Shown here piece by piece: positions 9,510-55,455 of a DNA stretch of 64,000 nt. This DNA comes from an uncultured Eubacteriales bacterium (GTDB lineage Bacteria; Acidobacteriota; Aminicenantia; Aminicenantales; Aminicenantaceae), in contig CAYSCW010000002.1 in the NCBI GenBank assembly GCA_964429795.1, forward strand, positions 23,431 through 87,430, read 5' to 3'. The notes under the pieces are model-generated. The model was given only the letters and a program-made list of their open reading frames with translations, searched no databases and was not told the origin of the DNA. The position numbers and the translations under genes were made by a program. Each line of letters begins with the position of its first letter. Positions within the stretch are counted from its first letter, which is position 1.

Positions 9510-11414
9510 ATGAACGAGCACAAACCTTATGTTCCAGATGAAATCCCATTCAAGGATATCACCCTCAAAGCCGTTGTGATCGGAGCCATTTTTGGCGTGA
9601 TCTTTGGTTCAGCCAATGCTTATCTGGGCCTCAGAGTAGGATTGACCATTTCCACGGCCATCCCTCTGGCCGTTATCGCTGTTGCTGTGTTTAGAATCCT
9701 CACTCCTGTTTTAGGAAAAAGCAACATCCTGGATTGCAACATAGCCCAGACAACTGGCTCGGCAAGCTCCTCCCTGGCATCGGGTATCATTTTCACCATT
9801 CCTGCCCTTTTCCTCTGGGGATTCAGCCCAAGTGTATTCAAGATAGGTACCCTGGCGCTTCTTGGAGGTGTGTTGGGAGTTCTGTTCATGATTCCTTTGA
9901 GGAGGTCTTTAATTGTCAAGGAGCATGGAGTCCTCCCCTACCCTGAAGGCACCGCTGCTGCTCATGTTCTGGTGGCAGCTGATACAGGCGGGACTAAGGC
10001 CAAAAACGTCTTCCTCGGATTAGGAGTGGGAGCTATCTTCAAGAGTTTGGTGGGTTTTTTTCACCTTTGGTCGGAGAAGATCTACCTCAAGATTCCTGTA
10101 CTCAAAAAGGCCACGCTTGGAATGGAACCTACTCCAGCCCTTCTTGGGGTGGGCTTTATCCTGGGACCCCGCATCGCCGGTATCATGGTTGCTGGTGGAA
10201 TGCTCTCCTGGTTGGGAATCATTCCTCTTATCGCCTATTTTGGGGAAAGTCTCAATCTTCCCCTGTTTCCTGAGAAAGAGCTGGCTATAGTCCAGATGTC
10301 TGCCGAGCAGATCTGGGATAAATACATCCGGGTCATTGGAGCCGGGGCCGTGGCTGTGGCAGGAATCATCACAGTCATCAAATCTTTGCCCACCATGTAT
10401 AACTCTCTTAAAACAAGCATAAAGGACATAAACATAAAAAGGGCAGGCATGCAGATGAAGACACAGAGGACACAGACGGATCTTCCCATCACTATTTTAG
10501 GCTTGGGAGTTTTGATAGTAATAATCATCCTGGTTTTAGCCCCTCAAGTCCTCGGTATCCAGACTTCGCTTATCATCCGGTTCATCGCCTCTCTGTGTAT
10601 CGTCTTTTTTGCCTTTTGCTTTGTGACTGTCTCTTCAAGAATTGTGGGTATGGTCGGAGTGACTTCTAATCCGACTTCAGGGATGGCTATCGTCACCCTT
10701 CTGGGCACAAGCCTTCTGTTTTATGCTCTGGGATGGACGGATATTCTGGGTCAGGCCACCGCTGTAACCATAGGCACTGTTGTGGCCGTAGGAGCATCCG
10801 TCGCCGGGGATATCTCTCAAGATCTCAAGGCTGGTTATATCATCGGAGCCACACCAAGGAGACAGCAAACATCGGAATTGATTGGAGTCCTGACTTCAGC
10901 GTTCGCCATTGCCGCGGCCGTCTGGCTGCTGGGAAGATCCTTTTCCTTTGGTTCTGTTGAGTTGCCTGCTCCTCAAGCTGTGCTGATGAAGACTGTGGTT
11001 GAAGGTGTACTAGGAGGCGATCTTCCTTGGGGGCTGGTGTTAATAGGAGGGGCTTTTGCCGTAGTAGCCGAACTTCTCCGCATCCCTTCCCTGCCCTTTG
11101 CTGTGGGTATTTATCTGCCTTTATCAACCATGACACCCATCTTCGTGGGGGGACTAGTCAGACAGATTATCGAAAACAGAGCTGGAAAAGACGAGCAGCT
11201 TCGAACCCACAAGAAAGAGAAAGGGATCCTTTTGGGTTCAGGATTCATCGCTGGAGAAGGGATCGCGGGCGTTTTGATTGCCCTGTATGCATTCATTGCC
11301 AAAGCCAAGCCAAAAGGAATTGGAATTGTCTGGCCGGGCGATCTCGGAGATTTCATAGCCTTGGCTGCGTTTCTGCTCTTGGTTGTCTATCTAGTCAGAA
11401 GGACCTCAAGATGA
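9510..11414 (+). CDS. OPT-family oligopeptide transporter (paralog 1)
   Basis: 634 aa, polytopic. The N-terminus (IPFKDITLKAVVIGAIFGVIFGSANAYLGLRVGLTISTAIP) matches the bacterial OPT superfamily. It is paralogous to 24023..26023. Confidence 0.88.
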   Translation: MNEHKPYVPDEIPFKDITLKAVVIGAIFGVIFGSANAYLGLRVGLTISTAIPLAVIAVAVFRILTPVLGKSNILDCNIAQTTGSASSSLASGIIFTIPALFLWGFSPSVFKIGTLALLGGVLGVLFMIPLRRSLIVKEHGVLPYPEGTAAAHVLVAADTGGTKAKNVFLGLGVGAIFKSLVGFFHLWSEKIYLKIPVLKKATLGMEPTPALLGVGFILGPRIAGIMVAGGMLSWLGIIPLIAYFGESLNLPLFPEKELAIVQMSAEQIWDKYIRVIGAGAVAVAGIITVIKSLPTMYNSLKTSIKDINIKRAGMQMKTQRTQTDLPITILGLGVLIVIIILVLAPQVLGIQTSLIIRFIASLCIVFFAFCFVTVSSRIVGMVGVTSNPTSGMAIVTLLGTSLLFYALGWTDILGQATAVTIGTVVAVGASVAGDISQDLKAGYIIGATPRRQQTSELIGVLTSAFAIAAAVWLLGRSFSFGSVELPAPQAVLMKTVVEGVLGGDLPWGLVLIGGAFAVVAELLRIPSLPFAVGIYLPLSTMTPIFVGGLVRQIIENRAGKDEQLRTHKKEKGILLGSGFIAGEGIAGVLIALYAFIAKAKPKGIGIVWPGDLGDFIALAAFLLLVVYLVRRTSR

Positions 11415-11475: not shown

Positions 11476-13128
11476 ATGAACGCACTCATCATCGCTGCTA
11501 TCCTCATTGTCTGGCTCGTTCTGGGCTACAAGGTATACGGAAGTTTTATCGAAAAAAAAGTCGTGAAGATGGACAACTCCCGTCTAACTCCAGCCAAACA
11601 ATTCTTCGATGGTATAGACTACTCGCCGGCAAAGAAACCTCTTCTCTTTGGCCATCATTTCTCTTCCATTGCGGGAGCAGGGCCTATCCTGGGTCCGCTT
11701 CTGGGAGTTCTCTACTTTGGCTGGCTAGGAACGCTTCTATGGGTAGCTTTAGGCAGTATCTTCCTGGGAGCGGTGCATGATTATACTTCGCTCATGACAT
11801 CTGTTCAGAACAAGGGAACATCTTTAGCCGATATTTCAGAGCGAACCCTGGGTTTGAGGACAAAGATTATTTTCTCTATTTTTATCTGGCTGACTTTGGC
11901 TATGGTGATTGCTGTTTTTGCCGTGGTGGCTGCGCAAACCCTTGTTTCTCAGCCTGAGATTGTAATACCCACCTTTGGTCTGATTTTCATCGCCATGATC
12001 TTCGGTTGGCTCATCTATAGGATAGGAATCAATGTTCCAATCGCCACTATTCTTGCCCTCTCCTTGCTCTCTATTCTTATTTACCTTGGACAGTTGTGTC
12101 CTATCCTGCCTCCAGCACAATTACTGGGGCTTTCTGCTCAGAGCTTTTGGTTTTATATTCTCATCATCTACAGTCTCTTCGCCTCTGCGCTTCCAGTCTG
12201 GTTCCTTCTTCAACCGCGTGATTATATCAGTACCTGGATTCTCTTCTTAGGCTTGGGACTGGGTTATCTGGGTCTCGTGATTTCTCATCCCTCCATCAAT
12301 GCTCCCGCTTTTGTCTCTTTCTCCAGCACAGGAGGTCCGCTCTGGCCCATCCTGTTCGTGATCGTTGCCTGCGGCGCCATCTCTGGTTTTCATTCCGTGG
12401 TGGCAGGAGGAACAACTGCCAAGCAGTTGCCCGATGAGGCCAGCGGCAAGTTGATCGGATTTGGGGGCATGGTGACAGAGGCAGCCTTGGCAGGCCTGGT
12501 GATATTCATTGCTTCAAGCGCCTTGGTTTGGGATCCCAAAGGAGCAGAAAGCCCGTTTGGTTTTCAATACCTGATGACCTCCCTCGGTGATCCCATCCGT
12601 GCTTTTGCCACTGGATATGGAAGATTTATTTCCTCGCTTCCCGGTCTCACTCTCGCCATAGGGCTTTTCTTTGGCATGGTGATGCTCAATGCCTTTGTTC
12701 TGACTACACTGGACACAGGTACCAGATTAGGGCGGTTCATTTTTTCAGAGCTTCTCAGCCACAAGGTTCCTTTTTTCAAGAACAGATGGATCAGCTCAGC
12801 TGTGATCCTCATTTTTGCTGCGGTGCTGGGAGGAACCGAAGGATACAAAGCGATCTGGCCAGTTTTTGGAGCATCAAACCAACTTGTGGCTGCCCTGGCT
12901 TTGATCGTGGTGTCCTCTTATATTGTGGGGATAAAAAGTCCCAAAAAGTACACAGTTTACCCGGCTATTTTTATGCTGGTTACAACCATAGCGGCTCTGC
13001 TCTACCAAGGATTTCATTTCTTTCAGGCGAAAAGCTATCTTCTGGGAAGTATGGCCGTTGTACTAGTGGCACTTGCTGCGGTCATTGTCTATGATGCCCG
13101 GGCAATTCTTTTTAAGGCTGATAACTAA
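11476..13128 (+). CDS. cstA: Carbon starvation protein A family peptide transporter
   Basis: HHFSSIAGAGPILGPLLGVLYFGWLGTLLWV, the CstA signature. 550 aa, polytopic. Confidence 0.9.
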   Translation: MNALIIAAILIVWLVLGYKVYGSFIEKKVVKMDNSRLTPAKQFFDGIDYSPAKKPLLFGHHFSSIAGAGPILGPLLGVLYFGWLGTLLWVALGSIFLGAVHDYTSLMTSVQNKGTSLADISERTLGLRTKIIFSIFIWLTLAMVIAVFAVVAAQTLVSQPEIVIPTFGLIFIAMIFGWLIYRIGINVPIATILALSLLSILIYLGQLCPILPPAQLLGLSAQSFWFYILIIYSLFASALPVWFLLQPRDYISTWILFLGLGLGYLGLVISHPSINAPAFVSFSSTGGPLWPILFVIVACGAISGFHSVVAGGTTAKQLPDEASGKLIGFGGMVTEAALAGLVIFIASSALVWDPKGAESPFGFQYLMTSLGDPIRAFATGYGRFISSLPGLTLAIGLFFGMVMLNAFVLTTLDTGTRLGRFIFSELLSHKVPFFKNRWISSAVILIFAAVLGGTEGYKAIWPVFGASNQLVAALALIVVSSYIVGIKSPKKYTVYPAIFMLVTTIAALLYQGFHFFQAKSYLLGSMAVVLVALAAVIVYDARAILFKADN

Positions 13129-24022: not shown

Positions 24023-26023
24023 ATGAGTAACATGCCTTACAAGCCTTATATCCCTCCTGAACAATCGATGAAAGAGATTTCATTCAGAGCTATATTCTTG
24101 GGGATCATCATGGCCATTATCCTAGGAGCAGCTAACGCTTATTTAGGGCTTCTGGTGGGAATGACCGTGGCTGCCACTTTCCCAGCAGCAGTGATTTCCA
24201 TGGCCGTTCTTCGGCCTCTCAAAGGTACCATTCTAGAGGAAAACTTAGCTAGAACTACAGGAGCAGTAGGAGAAGCTCTGGCCGCTGGAGCGATTTTTAC
24301 CATACCGGCCTTTCTTATGACAGGAGTCTGGACAAAATTTGATTTTGTCAAGTCCTCGCTTCTCATGCTAGTCGGAGGAATCCTGGGAGTGCTTCTTATA
24401 ATTCTGGTCAGGCGGACCCTTGTTGAAGATACCGAACTTCCCTTCCCGGAGAGTGTGGCCTGTGCAGAGATGGTCAAGACCGGACAGAAGGCAGGTTCAA
24501 ATGCTGCCTACATGTTTTGGGCCATGGGTCTAGGTGGTTTCATCGAATTCTTCACCAGCGAGAATGGTATCCGCCTCATAAGACCTTATGCTAACACTGT
24601 GTTTAAGATTCCCGGTTTATCTCGCATCACTTATCTTGACAGTTACAATGTGGAGGTTACCAAGACAGGCACGATTAAAGGGAGAATGTTCATCGAGTCA
24701 CCCGCAGCCAATGCAGCCATGACAGGGGTGGGATATATCATCGGACCTAAGCTGGCAGCTCTCACTTTTTCGGGAGGGGTTCTCGGATGGCTCTTCCTGA
24801 TGCCTATTCTTCTCTTTATCAGTGGAGACCTCAGTGCCATAGTTTCCGAATTTCAGGGAGACTGGACCGCCATGGCCGTCTCTGCTTACAACTCTCAGAT
24901 AAAACCGGTGGCAGTAGGGGCCATGCTTGTGGGTGCCTTTTACACCCTCTTCAAGATGCGCAAAAGTCTTATAACCGGCATCGGCCGCTCCCTTACTGAT
25001 GTCAAGAAGGCCCGGGCTGGAATGGACTCTGAAATCGTTAGGACAGATAAAGATTTGCCTTTCCCTTCTATCATCCTCGCCATCATTGCCCTTGTCATTC
25101 CCATGATCATCTTGTATAACATTTTTACCCGCAACCTGGGCTCTGCAACTGTCTCGGCCTTGGTGATGATCGTTATGGGGCTTTTATTTGCTGCTGTGGC
25201 TGGATATCTGGTAGGTATTATCGGTTCTTCCTCTAACCCCATTTCCGGTCTCACTCTGACCACATTGATTATAGCAGCCTTGATGATGGTGATCATGGGA
25301 CAAAGAGGCTCAGAAGGTATTGCTGCTGTTCTGGGTGTGGCTGCAGTCGTCTGCTGCGTGGCAGGAGTGGCTGGAGATATGATTCAGGACTGGAAAGTGG
25401 GACATATTCTTGGTGGAACTCCCTGGCGCATGCAGGTTGGAGGAATGATTGGAGTTGTTGCAGCAGCTTTGACTCTGACCTTCTCCCTTCAGCTCTTACA
25501 TAGCACTATAGGAATTGGAAGCGATGCTCTCCCTGCCCCTCAAGCTGGATTGATGGCCGCCATGTCCAAAGGAATCGTAGGCGGGGAGATGGCCTGGCCA
25601 CTGGTGGTTGCTGGAATGCTGCTGGCTATTGTGCTTATCCTTATCGGTTCTCCCTCACCCATGCTTATCGCTGTGGGTATGTATCTTCCCTTCCGGGCGA
25701 CTGCCTGCATTTTCTTTGGAGGGGTCATCAAATATTTCTTGGATAGTCGAGTGAAGAAAAAGAAATCCACAGCGAGAGGAAAAGAAATCGTAGGAAACAT
25801 CGGTCTGCTTCTGGCTTCGGGATTGATTGCAGGACAGGCGCTGACGGGAATTATCACTGCAGGTTTAGAGGGCGCAAAGCTAAGCCTGCCAGAAACCTGG
25901 AACAGTGCCTGGCTTGGTCTGGTGATTTTCTTTGTTCTGGGATTCGTCCTGATCTATCTTCCTTATAAAAAGATGGTCAAATCTGGTGAATATAGTGCGC
26001 CACCTGAACAGAAGGAAATCTAA
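24023..26023 (+). CDS. OPT-family oligopeptide transporter (paralog 2)
   Basis: 666 aa. MKEISFRAIFLGIIMAIILGAANAYLGLLVGMTVAATFPAAVISMA aligns with the 9510 paralog throughout, including the shared ...APQA.LM... motif. Confidence 0.88.
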   Translation: MSNMPYKPYIPPEQSMKEISFRAIFLGIIMAIILGAANAYLGLLVGMTVAATFPAAVISMAVLRPLKGTILEENLARTTGAVGEALAAGAIFTIPAFLMTGVWTKFDFVKSSLLMLVGGILGVLLIILVRRTLVEDTELPFPESVACAEMVKTGQKAGSNAAYMFWAMGLGGFIEFFTSENGIRLIRPYANTVFKIPGLSRITYLDSYNVEVTKTGTIKGRMFIESPAANAAMTGVGYIIGPKLAALTFSGGVLGWLFLMPILLFISGDLSAIVSEFQGDWTAMAVSAYNSQIKPVAVGAMLVGAFYTLFKMRKSLITGIGRSLTDVKKARAGMDSEIVRTDKDLPFPSIILAIIALVIPMIILYNIFTRNLGSATVSALVMIVMGLLFAAVAGYLVGIIGSSSNPISGLTLTTLIIAALMMVIMGQRGSEGIAAVLGVAAVVCCVAGVAGDMIQDWKVGHILGGTPWRMQVGGMIGVVAAALTLTFSLQLLHSTIGIGSDALPAPQAGLMAAMSKGIVGGEMAWPLVVAGMLLAIVLILIGSPSPMLIAVGMYLPFRATACIFFGGVIKYFLDSRVKKKKSTARGKEIVGNIGLLLASGLIAGQALTGIITAGLEGAKLSLPETWNSAWLGLVIFFVLGFVLIYLPYKKMVKSGEYSAPPEQKEI

Positions 26024-26440: not shown

Positions 26441-26605
26441 CCATTTCCGTGAGAGCTAATGATGAGGGATATAATCTGTCACAGCGCCTGGTGCCTCTCC
26501 TCCCTCGCCAAAGACCCTCTTACCCGCCACCATGGGCTTCGGAAAGACAGTAACCGTCGCCTCTCTACCTTGCCGGATGAAATATTTTCACTCATCACGT
26601 AAATG
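26441..26605. repeat. Mosaic intergenic repeat copy R1 (module A forward, module C, module B inverted) between the pqqD-like gene and def
   Basis: 26441-26470 ccatttccgtgagagctaatgatgagggat is module A. 26504-26542 ctcgccaaagaccctcttacccgccaccatgggcttcgg is module C (compare 52620-52660). 26571-26603 ccggatgaaatattttcactcatcacg is the reverse complement of module B (compare 52564-52590 and 47411-47440). Confidence 0.55.
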
Positions 26606-26805
26606 AAGATGCTTCCGCTTGGAATCAGGATTTGGATCAACTAACGAGGTGTCAGGCTTCCTTAAGAACGGAAACCTAAAGCAAGAATATCGCCTTGGCA
26701 TGACATAGATAATGAAGTCTGATCCTGATGTTGTCCAAGTCTCAAGACATAACAGAAGTTGAACAAAGAGTGATTTTTTTTTAAAATAAAGGTTAGTAGA
26801 GAAAA

Positions 26806-44969: not shown

Positions 44970-47063
44970 TTATTCTTGCTCAGGCTTGATCCGTCCTTCT
45001 TTGATCGCCTCTTGGATGATTTTCTGCTGGAGATGGCTGGGGACTTCTTCGTAATGGGAAAACTCCATAAGGAATGAACCTCTGCCTCCTGTTATAGAGG
45101 TTAACGATGGTTCAAAATCCAGCATCTCTGCCATAGGAACTTGGGCCTTGATGATGCGTAGATTTCCCTTCTGTTCCATGCCCTGCACTTTTCCACGGCG
45201 GCCGTTGAGGTTTCCCATGAGATCTCCCATGTATGCCTCTGGCGTGTAGACTTCAACATTCATGATCGGCTCGAGAATGGTGGGCTTGGCCTCCTTCATT
45301 CCTTTCTTGAAGGCCATGGAGGCTGCGATCTTGAAGGCGATATCAGAGGAATCAACTTCATGGAAAGAGCCATCATAAAGGACAACTTTGAAATCCATAG
45401 TCGGATATCCAGCCACGACTCCCTTTTTCTTGGCTTCCTTGATGCCTTTCTCTATGGAAGGGATAAAATTTTTAGGTATGGCCCCCCCGAAGATCTTATC
45501 CTCAAACTCAAAATCTTTTCCTCTGGCAAGGGGCTCCATCTTGATTTTTACATCCCCGTATTGTCCCCTTCCTCCAGTCTGTTTTTTGTACTTTCCCTGT
45601 ACATCAGAACGTCCCTTTATGGTTTCTTTGTAAGGGATTTTTGGAGGCTTCAGAACCACATCCACGTTGTATCTCTTTTTCAAGCGATCGGCGATGATTT
45701 CCACATGGAGCTGGCCATTTCCGGATATGATCAACTCGTTCGTTTCCGAGTCTCTTTCTATCTTTGCCGTGGGATCCTCCTCTGAGATACGGTGGGTAGC
45801 CTGGGAAATACGGTCTTCGTCGGCTCGTGTCTTTGGTTCAATGGCAAATGATATGGAAGGCTCGGGAAATTTGATAGGCGGAAATTCAATCCCGTTTCCC
45901 TTAACGCATAGAGTGTCGCCGGTGTATGTGGTTTTCAGCTTGGTTGTGGCCACGATATCACCCACTTTTGCCTCTCCTGCAGGGATTTGTTCTTTGCCTT
46001 TGAGGAAGAACAGCCCCCCCAGTTTCTCGTCTATATCATGATTGGTGTTGTACACAGTGGAATCAGGGCCAACCTTTCCCGAGAATATCCTCAAAAGGGA
46101 GATACGTCCAGTGTAGGGATCGGAGATAGTTTTGAAGACCAACGCAGAAAATGGGCCATCCAAATTGGGTTTGATTGTTTCTTCTTTTCCTTTGACGGTT
46201 GCTGCGATTTCTGCTCTATCTAAGGGGGAAGGCATGTAAGTGGTGATTCCATCCAGAATAGGCTGGATTCCCACGTTCGTCAGAGCCGAAGCCACAAAAA
46301 CGGGAAAAAGATGACGGGAGAGGACGGCCTTCTTAAGGCCTTCCCGTAGTTCTTCAGACGTTAGTTTACCCTTCTCGAAGTACTGTTCCATCAATTGTTC
46401 ATCGTTTTCTGCCACCATCTCTGTGAGCTCTTCGGCTTTCTTCTCAACTTCGGACTTGAGGTTCTCGGGCACTTCGGTCTCTTTGAATTTTCCGCTTTCG
46501 TCTTTCTCGAAAGTGAAGGCCTTTTTCTCCACAAGGTCTATGATTCCCGAAAAATTCTTCTCTTTGCCGATGGGGAGTTGAATCGGAACAGCCTGCCGGC
46601 CGAAAAATTGTTGAATGGAATCAAGGGTCCGTTGATAATCCGCATTTTCTCTATCCAGCTTATTGATGGTGATGATCCGAGGAAGATTGAATTCTTCCAG
46701 CATTTCCCAAACCTTCTCCGTTCCTACTTCCACTCCTGCTGCTCCACAGACTATAACCACTCCTCCATCTACAGCTCTTAAACAAGCTCTTGTATCCCAA
46801 AGGAAGTTTGTGTATCCAGGGCAATCTATAATGTTGATCTTATGGTTGTTCCAATCCAAATAACATACGGCAGAGTTTATCGAAATCTGCCTTTCAATTT
46901 CCTCTGGATCATAATCAGTGATGGTATTTCCTTTTTCAACTTTAGCCAGCCTGGAAGTTATCCCTGCATTAAAAAGGAAAACGGATGTCATGGATGTTTT
47001 TCCTGAAGAACCATGTCCAATCATGGCGACGTTTCTTATTCTCTCAGGGGAATAATCTTTCAT
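44970..47063 (-). CDS. Elongation factor G paralog with non-canonical G domain (P-loop GHGSSGKT; switch II DCPGY instead of DTPGH)
   Basis: 697 aa. Full EF-G domain order, aligning along its length to canonical EF-G (HKINIIDCPGYTNF vs HRINIIDTPGHVDF; NKLDR G4 motif present). It is not in an rpsL-rpsG-fusA-tuf context. Confidence 0.85.
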   Translation of the reverse strand: MKDYSPERIRNVAMIGHGSSGKTSMTSVFLFNAGITSRLAKVEKGNTITDYDPEEIERQISINSAVCYLDWNNHKINIIDCPGYTNFLWDTRACLRAVDGGVVIVCGAAGVEVGTEKVWEMLEEFNLPRIITINKLDRENADYQRTLDSIQQFFGRQAVPIQLPIGKEKNFSGIIDLVEKKAFTFEKDESGKFKETEVPENLKSEVEKKAEELTEMVAENDEQLMEQYFEKGKLTSEELREGLKKAVLSRHLFPVFVASALTNVGIQPILDGITTYMPSPLDRAEIAATVKGKEETIKPNLDGPFSALVFKTISDPYTGRISLLRIFSGKVGPDSTVYNTNHDIDEKLGGLFFLKGKEQIPAGEAKVGDIVATTKLKTTYTGDTLCVKGNGIEFPPIKFPEPSISFAIEPKTRADEDRISQATHRISEEDPTAKIERDSETNELIISGNGQLHVEIIADRLKKRYNVDVVLKPPKIPYKETIKGRSDVQGKYKKQTGGRGQYGDVKIKMEPLARGKDFEFEDKIFGGAIPKNFIPSIEKGIKEAKKKGVVAGYPTMDFKVVLYDGSFHEVDSSDIAFKIAASMAFKKGMKEAKPTILEPIMNVEVYTPEAYMGDLMGNLNGRRGKVQGMEQKGNLRIIKAQVPMAEMLDFEPSLTSITGGRGSFLMEFSHYEEVPSHLQQKIIQEAIKEGRIKPEQE

Positions 47064-47183
47064 CTTAGAGCCTCCCTATGGAATGGAAAACTTGGTTTTA
47101 AGATGCAGGAAATCTTCTTTGCCAAAGAGGCAAGCAACGAATATGATACAATAAAATCTACTCTCTTCTCAAGGTATTTTTTG

Positions 47184-47490
47184 CAGTATGTAAGCATCCC
47201 CATTTCCGTGATGCAGTAACAGTCAGGTAAGCTGATTCGTCAGCCCGCGGATTTTCCCCAGCGAGGAAAATCCGCTTATTCCTCGGCTCGCTCTCCTCTT
47301 CGAGGAACCATGCCCGCTCGCCTCCGGATGTCTTCCAACTCAGCTTACCTGACTGCTGTTAAAACTGTCACGGAAATAAGGGTGCTTCCTTGCAGTATCT
47401 CCATTTCCGCGATGAGTGAAAACATTTCATACGGTTAGGTAGTGAGACGGCGGTTCCCATCCCTCTGAAGGCCATGGTGGGAGGGTCTTT
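47184..47490. repeat. Mosaic intergenic repeat copy R2 (composite: R2a has a long inverted repeat flanking module D and an internal hairpin; R2b has module A-like + module B + inverted module C), abutting the rluD stop
   Basis: Each sub-element begins ttgcagtat(g/c)...catttccg (47181 and 47393). R2a arms 47203-47234 and 47339-47376 are imperfect inverted repeats. Internal hairpin GCGGATTTT-11nt-AAAATCCGC at 47247-47275. Module D 47230-47268 matches 55368-55406. Module B 47411-47465 matches 52564-52620. Confidence 0.6.
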
Positions 47491-52560: not shown

Positions 52561-52735
52561 CCATGATGAGTGAAGATATTTCATCCAGTAAGGTAGTTAG
52601 GCAGCAGTTGCCCTCCATCCTCGCCAAAGACCTTCCCACCCTCCGCCATGGGCTTCGGATGAACCGCAACCGCCGCTGGGACTGATCATCTCCCTCGTCA
52701 TTAGCTATCACGGAAATTGAGATGATTCCCATTTC
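52561..52735. repeat. Mosaic intergenic repeat copy R3 (module B forward, module C, module A inverted) between the nadB 3' end and the ileS 5' region
   Basis: 52564-52620 atgatgagtgaagatatttcatccagtaaggtagttaggcagcagttgccctccatcc is module B. 52620-52660 is module C. 52688-52717 is the reverse complement of module A. Confidence 0.55.
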
Positions 52736-55327: not shown

Positions 55328-55455
55328 AGCATCTCCATCTCCGTGATGATTGTAATGACAGTTGGGCAAGCTGAATCGTCAGCACGCGGATTTTCCCCAG
55401 CGAGGATGGAGGGGAACCGGCGTTGTCCCTCATCATTAGCTATCATGGAAATGCT
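55328..55455. repeat. Mosaic intergenic repeat copy R4 (module A-like forward, module D, module E, module A inverted) in the nadC / flippase-like divergent region
   Basis: 55331-55356 catctccatctccgtgatgattgtaatga and 55426-55453 gtccctcatcattagctatcatggaaat form terminal inverted repeats. Module D 55368-55406 matches 47230-47268. Module E tggaggggaaccggcgttg matches 3120-3137. Confidence 0.55.

Follow-up and report, generated by a model that had tools for sequence, protein, structure and literature searches.

An EFG II (EF-G2)-type elongation factor G paralogue of Aminicenantes with tyrosine at the position of the catalytic histidine

Our analysis of a 64-kb stretch of DNA (the window) revealed that the gene at 44970-47063, judged by its diagnostic residues and profile scores, belongs, as an ordinary member, to EF-G2 (EFG II), a widespread family of second EF-G copies. 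We consider it somewhat more probable than all other outcomes taken together (roughly 0.55) that the gene encodes an alternative, GTP-sparing elongation factor, which would bind GTP and translocate slowly with little or no ribosome-stimulated hydrolysis. On the same evidence the known EFG II / EF-G2 family is extended to the uncultured Aminicenantes, and the protein is not of a new kind. The result has little weight as a discovery and its practical value lies in annotation: automated pipelines can take EFG II proteins for fusA.

Gene and domain architecture

44970-47063, minus strand: CDS of an EFG II / EF-G2-type elongation factor G paralogue, domains G+G', II, III, IV and V (ORF, Pfam, NCBIfam and solved EF-G structures)

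The ORF listing of the window gave a minus-strand frame of 697 aa with an ATG start, and no identical protein is on record for this exact sequence. Pfam recognized GTP_EFTU, EF-G_D2, EFG_III, EFG_IV and EFG_C in it, that is, all five EF-G domains. In phmmer, residues 3-684 were collinear with residues 6-689 of T. thermophilus EF-G (654 bits, E = 2.6e-195), pairing IGHGSSGKT with AAHIDAGKT and DCPGY with D(A/T)PGH. A MAFFT alignment of 153 sequences, which was independent of phmmer, placed Tyr84 in the column of Thermus thermophilus EF-G His87. The agreement of both methods indicated that the DCPGY motif was correctly registered, and the mis-registration that the earlier note had named as a possible refutation was not observed. 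An AlphaFold2 model built from a 126-sequence alignment reached a pLDDT of 93.8 (a shallower input of 29 close orthologues gave 54.7 and was discarded) and a TM-score of up to 0.94 on whole EF-G chains, the best being ribosome-bound E. coli EF-G; the fold search supports an EF-G fold, at a level where EF-G subfamilies are not separable. Pfam, the collinear alignment and the comparison of the model with the PDB thus bore out the collinearity over five domains that had been read from the sequence, and gave the full five-domain architecture with G' insertion that characterizes EFG II.

G motifs and domain IV loops

46995-47018, minus strand: G1 / P-loop GHGSSGKT, residues 16-23, AHIDAGKT in canonical EF-G (sequence, alignments)
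46878-46892, minus strand: G2 / switch I RQISI, residues 58-62, RGITI in canonical EF-G (alignments)
46812-46826, minus strand: G3 / switch II DCPGY, residues 80-84, with Tyr84 (TAC, 46814-46812) in place of the catalytic His (sequence, alignments)
46653-46664, minus strand: G4 NKLD, residues 134-137, guanine-specificity motif, intact (sequence, alignments)
45552-45593, minus strand: domain IV loop I KYKKQTGGRGQYGD, residues 491-504, with EFG II-specific Lys493 and Lys494 (alignments; positions from PMC3150367 Table 2)

The G1 and G3 motifs and the Tyr codon at 46812-46814, all reported before, could be read directly from the sequence. Instead of the canonical set AHIDAGKT / RGITI / DTPGH, the paralogue carries GHGSSGKT / RQISI / DCPGY. 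In EFG II the G2 pattern is xxxSx (PMC3150367), replacing RGITI while G1, G3 (DxPG) and G4 are kept, and this is the arrangement found here (RQISI with GHGSSGKT, DCPG and NKLD). Gly16 of the P-loop and Ser61 of switch I are EFG II marker residues, and switch I has kept Arg58 and Ile60. The P-loop Asp, which is Ser19 in the paralogue, is involved in monovalent cation binding and in contact with the SRL. The tip loops of domain IV are KYKKQTGGRGQYGD and YDGSFHEVDSS, and the former, at the translocation tip, is nearly identical to that of T. thermophilus EF-G-2.

The motifs and the domain IV loops were conserved across 84 orthologues. By count, the P-loop was kept in 119/120 of the close homologues listed and in 80/83 genomic orthologues, and Tyr84 in all 120 of the former and 82 of the 83 latter.

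Assignment to EFG II / EF-G2

The EFG II marker positions were taken from PMC3150367 (type I from Table 1) and mapped by shared alignment columns. The window protein has five of the six type I residues: Gly16, Leu25, Ser61, Thr291, Gly333 and Lys/Arg352 of 1WDT correspond to Gly16, Met25, Ser61, Thr312, Gly356 and Lys375. Of the type II residues it has six of seven, Asp216, Val250, Leu264, Lys471, Lys472, Glu513 and Gly603 corresponding to Asp221, Val255, Ile269, Lys493, Lys494, Glu538 and Gly628. The two exceptions, Met25 and Ile269, are conservative, and position 25 is Leu in most orthologues.

A phylogeny against related GTPase families had been proposed in the earlier note. Our neighbour-joining tree, which is unrooted and was built without Tet, RF3 or spdEFG outgroups, separated canonical EF-Gs from the rest at 100/100 bootstrap and placed the window protein on the EF-G2 side, together with 1WDT and the Bacteroidetes-type EF-G2 (P0217). 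With domains II-V only, the HMM of non-canonical relatives scored 601 bits and the canonical one 513; a similar margin was obtained for 1WDT (449 vs 360), and the score differences agreed in every region of the protein. The best NCBIfam match was NF009381 (PRK12740.1-5; 968 bits, cut-off 583), a sibling of the model PRK12740.1-1, 'EF-G-like protein EF-G2'. NF009377 ('elongation factor G-like protein EF-G2') and NF058620 ('EFG2_Bacteroid') scored below their cut-offs (608 against 890 and 607.6 against 1000), while the EF-G equivalog TIGR00484 scored above its own (735 against 659). TIGR00484 does not discriminate between canonical EF-G and the EFG II proteins of this branch. Since both it and NF009381 accept such proteins, they carry the public label 'elongation factor G'.

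The earlier note treated the lost histidine as an oddity of one gene. Among 144 full-length relatives (representatives of 50%-identity clusters), the position was occupied by Tyr in 66 and Phe in 31 (97 together), and by His in 9. Judged from this distribution, loss of the catalytic His is a family signature of EFG II / EF-G2, with Tyr or Phe as the rule. The founding description of the family does not mention the replacement, the words 'histidine' and 'tyrosine' being absent from it (PMC3150367).

The same profiles bear on the idea that the protein protects ribosomes in the manner of Tet(M)/Tet(O) or resembles RF3, which we find scarcely credible. The EF-G-like fold and the position outside a str operon would suit such a protein, and 7UVP (B. 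thetaiotaomicron EF-G2) is labelled 'TetQ' in the PDB. However, the scores were far under the cut-offs (tet_protect 330 vs 775, RF3 (prfC) 221 vs 473), the alignments to Tet proteins were broken into separate stretches, and the domain IV loops are of EF-G type. Membership of the Tet, RF3, BipA and LepA families was ruled out by the NCBIfam scores. Ribosome protection, one of the roles suggested earlier, thus failed at the family threshold, and rescue and hibernation found no support in our analysis; the homologues suggest roles that the paralogue may share, either as a slow alternative translocase or in slowing translation under stress.

Locus and conservation

47143-47172, minus strand: sigma-70-like putative promoter TTGAGA-18-TATCAT for the EF-G paralogue (consensus scan, 10/12 matches)
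47071-47075, minus strand: Shine-Dalgarno GGAGG, 8 nt 5' of the ATG (sequence; invariant in 15 loci)
47193-47480, no strand assigned: lineage-specific repeat element ('R2') between the rluD stop codon and the promoter (inverted repeats)

The gene is flanked upstream by ileS, lspA, lgt and an rluD-type gene and downstream by an MFS transporter gene in convergent orientation, in accordance with the earlier statement that it is not in the str operon. Location outside that operon is also a trait of EFG II, and the order ileS-lspA-lgt-rluD ahead of the gene in the window recurs on related contigs. TTGAG and TA..AT of the promoter did not vary when the upstream regions of 15 Aminicenantes loci were aligned. 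In an Rfam scan of gene and leader, the sole match was to an S15 leader inside the CDS, which scored below threshold (18 bits vs 39.5) and which we dismissed as chance.

The repeat noticed beside the gene was recovered at 47193-47480, with partial copies in three further intergenic spacers of the window. It is absent at one related locus (L004), and the rluD-EF-G spacer measures 425 bp in the window vs 111 bp at another (L001). The repeat is an insertion, separate from the EF-G gene and missing at orthologous loci.

Across Aminicenantes, orthologues were 70-99% identical and Tyr was present in 202/203, so the His-to-Tyr change does run through the clade, as the earlier note had asked. Orthologues also occur on the complete chromosomes OY969586.1, OY970261.1 and OY969696.1 (L027, L039 and L050), and a 96% orthologue lies on the MAG contig CAYVAT010000003.1. 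The paralogue is the best-conserved gene of its neighbourhood, with a median identity of 75.6% vs 70.9% for IleRS. The conservation of Tyr84, motifs and loops, the top rank in the neighbourhood, the conserved promoter and Shine-Dalgarno sequence and the TM-score of 0.94 together indicate that the gene is functional in Aminicenantes.

Search for a canonical fusA

Within the 64-kb window, tblastn revealed no other translational GTPase genes. With T. thermophilus EF-G as query, the window together with 83 orthologous loci (1.1 Mb) yielded no canonical EF-G; this DNA was sampled around the paralogue and is not a genome-wide sample. Besides the paralogue itself, only one orphan domain V fragment was returned. 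Likewise, genes for EF-G, EF-Tu, S7, S12 and S10 were not found in 108 metagenome contigs (837 kb), which were selected by a match to a lineage-specific repeat 21-mer.

Aminicenantes are slow-growing, energy-limited subsurface anaerobes. If the His-less factor were their principal or even only translocase, the routine protein synthesis of a whole bacterial class would run with little or no GTP hydrolysis at translocation. We hold this to be very improbable; what likelihood it has comes from conservation above that of IleRS, a generic EF-G model that accepts the protein, and sampled DNA in which no canonical fusA was found. The stricter form, in which a sole EF-G lacking the catalytic His performs every translocation and recycling step, could appeal to the same top conservation and TIGR00484 score and to a search of the window and some 1.9 Mb of related DNA that found no canonical fusA, but appears to us extremely improbable. 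Except for the 837 kb of repeat-matched contigs, that DNA was picked around the paralogue itself, and the absence of fusA from it says little. Furthermore, no str operon surrounds the gene, a study of 590 genomes describes EFG II as 'always accompanied by another EFG' (PMC3150367), and EFGII-bearing Acidobacteria also carry EFG (Atkinson survey, supplement of PMC4342817).

Proposed role

In the GTP-sparing reading, the gene would be an old, widespread second EF-G copy with a remodelled GTPase centre. Guanine nucleotide binding would be retained through P-loop Lys22/Thr23, Asp80/Gly83, NKLD and G5, and EF-G-like ribosome engagement through the five-domain layout and the tip loops of domain IV. 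The coupling of ribosome binding to fast hydrolysis, by contrast, would be lost through Tyr84 in place of the catalytic His, Gly18 and Ser19 in place of the P-loop Ile and Asp, and Gln59 in place of the switch-I Gly. The GTP-bound protein may then dock at the factor-binding site of 70S ribosomes and drive slow tRNA-mRNA translocation. It would be expressed from its own promoter, beside a canonical EF-G that we assume to be encoded elsewhere. That the protein binds GTP and ribosomes, translocates slowly and has reduced GTPase activity is in each case inferred from homologues.

On the loss of GTP hydrolysis the sequence evidence is mixed: Tyr84, Gly18 and Ser19 favour it, whereas activity has been reported for T. 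thermophilus EF-G-2, which has the same Tyr. Tyr alone is therefore no proof of lost hydrolysis. The prediction of the earlier note, GTP binding without conventional hydrolysis, consequently stands in part: it agrees with EF-G2 of M. smegmatis and, as described in other papers, of B. thetaiotaomicron, and it conflicts with T. thermophilus EF-G-2 (DAPGY).

Comparison with known EF-G proteins

Canonical EF-G (EFG I, fusA) has the same fold, conserved domains III-V and 43-47% full-length identity to the window protein. However, AHIDAGKT, RGITI, DTPGH and the str operon location are features of the canonical factor that the window protein lacks.

B. thetaiotaomicron EF-G2 (BT2167, fusA2; 7UVP, 8DMF) is likewise a paralogue outside the str operon with its own promoter, which is regulated in BT2167. 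It has the P-loop GSSGSGKT and DCPGS, and thus shares DCPG without His, although the residue at the His position is Ser and not Tyr. Its identity to the window protein is about 34%, its switch I is YGYSV, and an insertion in domain IV splits the alignment in two. According to PMC12775393, it translocates without GTP hydrolysis, and a cited title terms it 'lacking GTPase activity'. It was induced >200-fold under carbon limitation while fusA fell (PMC6989115).

The type member of EFG II is T. thermophilus EF-G-2 (TTHA1498; 1WDT, 2DY1), with which the window protein has 555 bits and about 40% identity. Both have five domains, similar P-loops (GHAGSGKT and GHGSSGKT), the Tyr of DxPGY (DAPGY and DCPGY), a Lys-rich domain IV loop (KYKKQTGGHGQYGD and KYKKQTGGRGQYGD, respectively) and marker residues such as Gly333 and Lys352 of the Thermus protein. 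The latter is the shorter protein at 665 aa, the deletions being located in G' and at the junction of domains I and II, and its switch I is LHRTTV where the window protein has RQISI. The window protein scores higher against canonical EF-G (654 bits) than against 1WDT (555), indicating a less diverged branch of EFG II. For T. thermophilus EF-G-2, intrinsic and ribosome-dependent GTPase, translocation and poly(Phe) activities have been reported. The window protein might accordingly be a fully active second EF-G, in which Tyr84 or another residue replaces His and the hydrolysing translocase is tuned to particular conditions. Its very high conservation and the TIGR00484 score fit this, and E. coli H91Q hydrolyses GTP as the wild type does, which indicates that His is replaceable in principle. 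However, H91A, H91E and H91R of E. coli EF-G slow hydrolysis, and Pi release even more; mycobacterial EF-G1 with H88Y has almost no ribosome-dependent GTPase left; and the window protein has further lost the P-loop Asp and the half of the hydrophobic gate that the P-loop provides. Full activity hence seems unlikely to us.

M. smegmatis EF-G2 (9K0Z, 9K10), found alongside a canonical EF-G1, likewise has Tyr (Tyr98) in place of the His. It shows minimal ribosome-dependent GTPase and no ribosome recycling, and is described as a trap for post-translocated ribosomes during stress. By analogy, the window protein could be a translation brake of the kind proposed for mycobacterial EF-G2, binding ribosomes in times of stress and holding them after translocation with neither hydrolysis nor recycling, and its own putative promoter would make separate regulation possible. 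We regard this as rather improbable. The domain IV tip loops are nearly identical to those of the translocation-competent EF-G and EF-G-2 of T. thermophilus, and the match to 9K0Z (473 bits, in two separate stretches) is weaker than those to 1WDT and canonical EF-G. Mycobacterial EF-G2 is also far more degenerate, with the P-loop GPSGG, no conserved switch I residues, displaced domain IV loops and a G domain shifted off the SRL, whereas the window protein retains His17 in the P-loop and Arg58, Ile60 and Ser61 in switch I. This unusually conserved and little degenerated Aminicenantes branch could help to settle the discrepancy between T. thermophilus EF-G-2, which has Tyr and is reported as active, and M. 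smegmatis EF-G2, which is inactive.

Sequence, fold and family placement

The earlier note had claimed an EF-G paralogue with an altered P-loop and DCPGY in switch II, which was borne out by the ORF, Pfam, phmmer and direct reading of the DNA (the source of the four motifs below):

44970-47063, minus strand: EF-G paralogue CDS, a single long ORF of 697 aa with ATG start
47071-47075, minus strand: Shine-Dalgarno GGAGG, 8 nt 5' of the ATG
residues 16-23, minus strand: P-loop GHGSSGKT
residues 58-62, minus strand: G2 motif RQISI
residues 80-84, minus strand: switch II DCPGY, with Tyr84 encoded by TAC at 46814-46812
residues 134-137, minus strand: NKLD

Pfam found 5/5 EF-G domains in the window protein. 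Its residues 3-684 aligned by phmmer with residues 6-689 of T. thermophilus EF-G without large gaps (654 bits), AHIDAGKT of the latter lying opposite the window P-loop and the switch-II His opposite Tyr84. Tyr84 also occupied the His87 column in an independent MAFFT alignment of 153 sequences, so the motif had not been mis-registered and the Tyr codon had been placed correctly. The AlphaFold2 model (pLDDT 93.8) superposed on whole EF-G chains, with TM of 0.94 against ribosome-bound E. coli EF-G, 0.84 against ribosome-bound B. thetaiotaomicron EF-G2 and 0.79 against 1WDT, the structure of T. thermophilus EF-G-2.

Margus et al. divided EF-G into four subfamilies and tabulated the positions diagnostic for EFG II, the subfamily of second EF-G copies (PMC3150367). 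The window protein carried the EFG II markers Gly16, Ser61, Thr312, Gly356 and Lys375, as well as Asp221, Val255, Lys493, Lys494, Glu538 and Gly628, and its RQISI matched the EFG II G2 pattern xxxSx; Leu25 was replaced by Met (Leu in most orthologues) and Leu264 (1WDT numbering) by Ile. An unrooted neighbour-joining tree was built from the window protein, six Aminicenantes orthologues, 144 full-length 50%-identity cluster representatives, and T. thermophilus EF-G and EF-G-2. Seven canonical EF-Gs were split from everything else in 100/100 bootstraps, and T. thermophilus EF-G-2 and the Bacteroidetes-type EF-G2 fell on the window protein's side. The non-canonical profile outscored the canonical one in every region, including domains II-V, to which no G motif contributes (601 vs 513 bits); the margin was matched by T. 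thermophilus EF-G-2 (449 vs 360) and had the opposite sign for canonical EF-G. From these comparisons, we filed the window protein as an EFG II member on a slowly evolving, little-degenerated branch. A Tet/RF3-like factor was scarcely credible. The best NCBIfam model was NF009381 (PRK12740.1-5, 968 bits), whose sibling PRK12740.1-1 is 'EF-G-like protein EF-G2'; the window protein scored below the cut-offs of both models named EF-G2 and above that of the generic TIGR00484. All named orthologues among the 120 closest protein clusters were called plain 'elongation factor G' because TIGR00484 and NF009381 accept these proteins, indicating that automated annotation is unable to separate the paralogue from fusA.

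The missing histidine across the family and the lineage

Tyr was the commonest residue in the His column of the 144 representatives (66), followed by Phe (31) and Asp (11); His itself stood there in 9, of which six were canonical EF-Gs, Leu in 6, and nine further states, one of them a gap, were rarer still. P-loop position 1 was Gly in 109/144, the P-loop Asp position was mostly Gly (89), with Ser in 15 and the Asp retained in 11, and the G2 Thr position was Ser in 105/144. That EFGII is devoid of the P-loop Asp that binds a monovalent cation had already been noted by Atkinson (PMC4342817). The co-variation of the His-to-Tyr change within a clade, which the earlier note had proposed to check, was real, but it is ancient and shared by a very large clade; the missing His is not special to the window protein.

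Names, where given, of the 120 closest clusters listed (75-99% identity) were Candidatus Aminicenantes, Aminicenantaceae and Saccharicenans MAGs. Species-representative genomes yielded 195 relatives, the best 80 of which (70-96% identity, three complete chromosomes among them) were titled almost all Aminicenantes, Aminicenantia, Acidobacteriota or non-specifically 'uncultured'. D[C/T/S]PGY was present in 120/120 and GHGSSGKT in 119/120 of the closest clusters listed, and the His position was Tyr in 82/83 genomic orthologues and Lys in 1/83. The lone Lys, in motif DTPGK of L080 (CAYWJT010000023.1), may be genuine or may stem from an error in the assembly. Across 84 orthologues, GHGS.GKT, R.I.I, D.PGY..FLWDT and NK were invariant among other stretches, likewise K.QTGGRGQ.GD and LYDG..H.VDSSDIAFK of domain IV, and conservation was highest in domains III-V. 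The paralogue was the best-conserved gene of its neighbourhood (63-83 loci), with a median identity of 75.6%, IleRS reaching 70.9% and both RluD and LspA 53%. The gene is functional, strong purifying selection acts on it, and Tyr84 itself is selected. Slower evolution than the adjacent IleRS across the class is unusual for a subfamily described as fast-evolving (PMC3150367).

Canonical fusA was absent from about 1.9 Mb of related DNA, all but 837 kb of which (repeat-bearing contigs) had been selected around the paralogue. It was very improbable that the paralogue serves as main translocase of this energy-limited Aminicenantes lineage, though a His-less main translocase there would be remarkable; that it is the sole EF-G was even harder to accept, since a genome with EFG II always has a further EF-G as well (PMC3150367) and Acidobacteria with EFGII also carry EFG in the Atkinson survey (PMC4342817). 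In locus L081, a 147-aa ORF (L081:10724-11167) corresponded to an orphan domain V and C-terminal tail of the same paralogue, 2.6 kb downstream of the intact gene with a 658-aa ORF between, which suggests a relic of rearrangement or partial duplication.

Gene neighbourhood, promoter and repeat element

Upstream on the same strand lay ileS, lspA, lgt and an rluD-type pseudouridine synthase gene, and downstream a convergent gene for an MFS transporter preceded ChaN-like and M14 peptidase genes. The order nadC-nadB-ileS-lspA-lgt-rluD-EF-G paralogue was kept in contigs whose protein was just 77% identical. Neither rpsL, rpsG, tuf nor a second EF-G gene was found within the 64-kb window. Two OPT-family oligopeptide transporters and a CstA carbon-starvation peptide transporter (9510-11414, 24023-26023, 11476-13128) and several peptidases (M14, two PmbA/TldD, S41/tricorn-type) in the window fit a peptide-fermenting lifestyle.

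The 5' region contained the following:

47143-47172, minus strand: sigma-70-like promoter TTGAGA-18-TATCAT, 5' of the paralogue, conserved across loci
47193-47480, no strand assigned: ~290-bp MITE/REP-like inverted-repeat element, just upstream of the -35
47220-47235 with 47340-47355, no strand assigned: inverted repeat of the element, 16 nt, 100% complementary
47192-47211 with 47368-47387: nested inverted repeat of the element
47247-47275: inner GC-rich hairpin of the element
55328-55406, 26527-26613 and 52565-52619, no strand assigned: incomplete copies of the element, one in each of three further intergenic spacers

TTGAG, TA..AT and the Shine-Dalgarno were invariant in 15 aligned Aminicenantes upstream regions, elsewhere just 43% identical, the promoter-like element and GGAGG being the sole conserved blocks; therefore, the gene is its own transcription unit. 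The gene and its leader matched no Rfam leader or riboswitch. The repeat R2, which the earlier note placed beside the gene, was indeed the 47193-47480 element. Its terminal motifs were like CATCACGGAAATGGAGATGC, and its 21-mer GCGGATTTTCCCCAGCGAGGA occurred in 108 JGI metagenome stretches. The element was not present at the 96%-identical locus L004, and its presence accounts for the 5' spacer of 425 bp in the window vs 111 bp in locus L001; it is separate from the paralogue gene.

Predicted function and comparison with known EF-G2 proteins

The window protein kept the nucleotide-binding elements (Lys22, Thr23, Asp80, Gly83, NKLD, G5), Ser61 for Thr in Mg2+ coordination, His17 of the P-loop, Arg58 and Ile60 of switch I and the tip of domain IV. 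It lost the catalytic His, the switch-I Gly and, in the P-loop, both the Asp and the Ile that makes up half of the hydrophobic gate. In E. coli, H91 mutants showed normal GTP binding but slower hydrolysis, and Pi release was slowed even more. For B. thetaiotaomicron EF-G2, translocation in the absence of GTP hydrolysis has been described (PMC12775393), and under carbon limitation its gene was induced 238-fold as fusA went down 10-fold (PMC6989115). The kept and lost residues, together with experiments on relatives, favour an alternative translocase that would bind GTP, with ribosome-stimulated hydrolysis absent or strongly reduced (probability roughly 0.55). A fully active second EF-G was unlikely. 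In its favour, T. thermophilus EF-G-2, which has the same Tyr, is reported to show GTPase, both intrinsic and ribosome-dependent, as well as poly(Phe) activity; against it, H88Y nearly abolished the ribosome-dependent GTPase of mycobacterial EF-G1. Slightly less probable again was a brake that holds the ribosome, as would fit M. smegmatis EF-G2, a protein with minimal GTPase and no ribosome recycling that is proposed to slow translation under stress.

The loss of conventional hydrolysis predicted by the earlier note agreed with the EF-G2 proteins of M. smegmatis and B. thetaiotaomicron. It is contradicted by the Tyr-bearing T. thermophilus EF-G-2, reported to be active, and the note's interpretation was supported in part. 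The family members with solved structures fit the pattern at the His position: T. thermophilus EF-G-2 (GHAGSGKT/DAPGY) has the same Tyr as the window protein, and M. smegmatis EF-G2 has Tyr98 where the latter has Tyr84; B. thetaiotaomicron EF-G2 (GSSGSGKT/DCPGS) also lacks the His but carries Ser instead of Tyr. The EFG II/EF-G2 kind is already known, and what is new is its Aminicenantes member.
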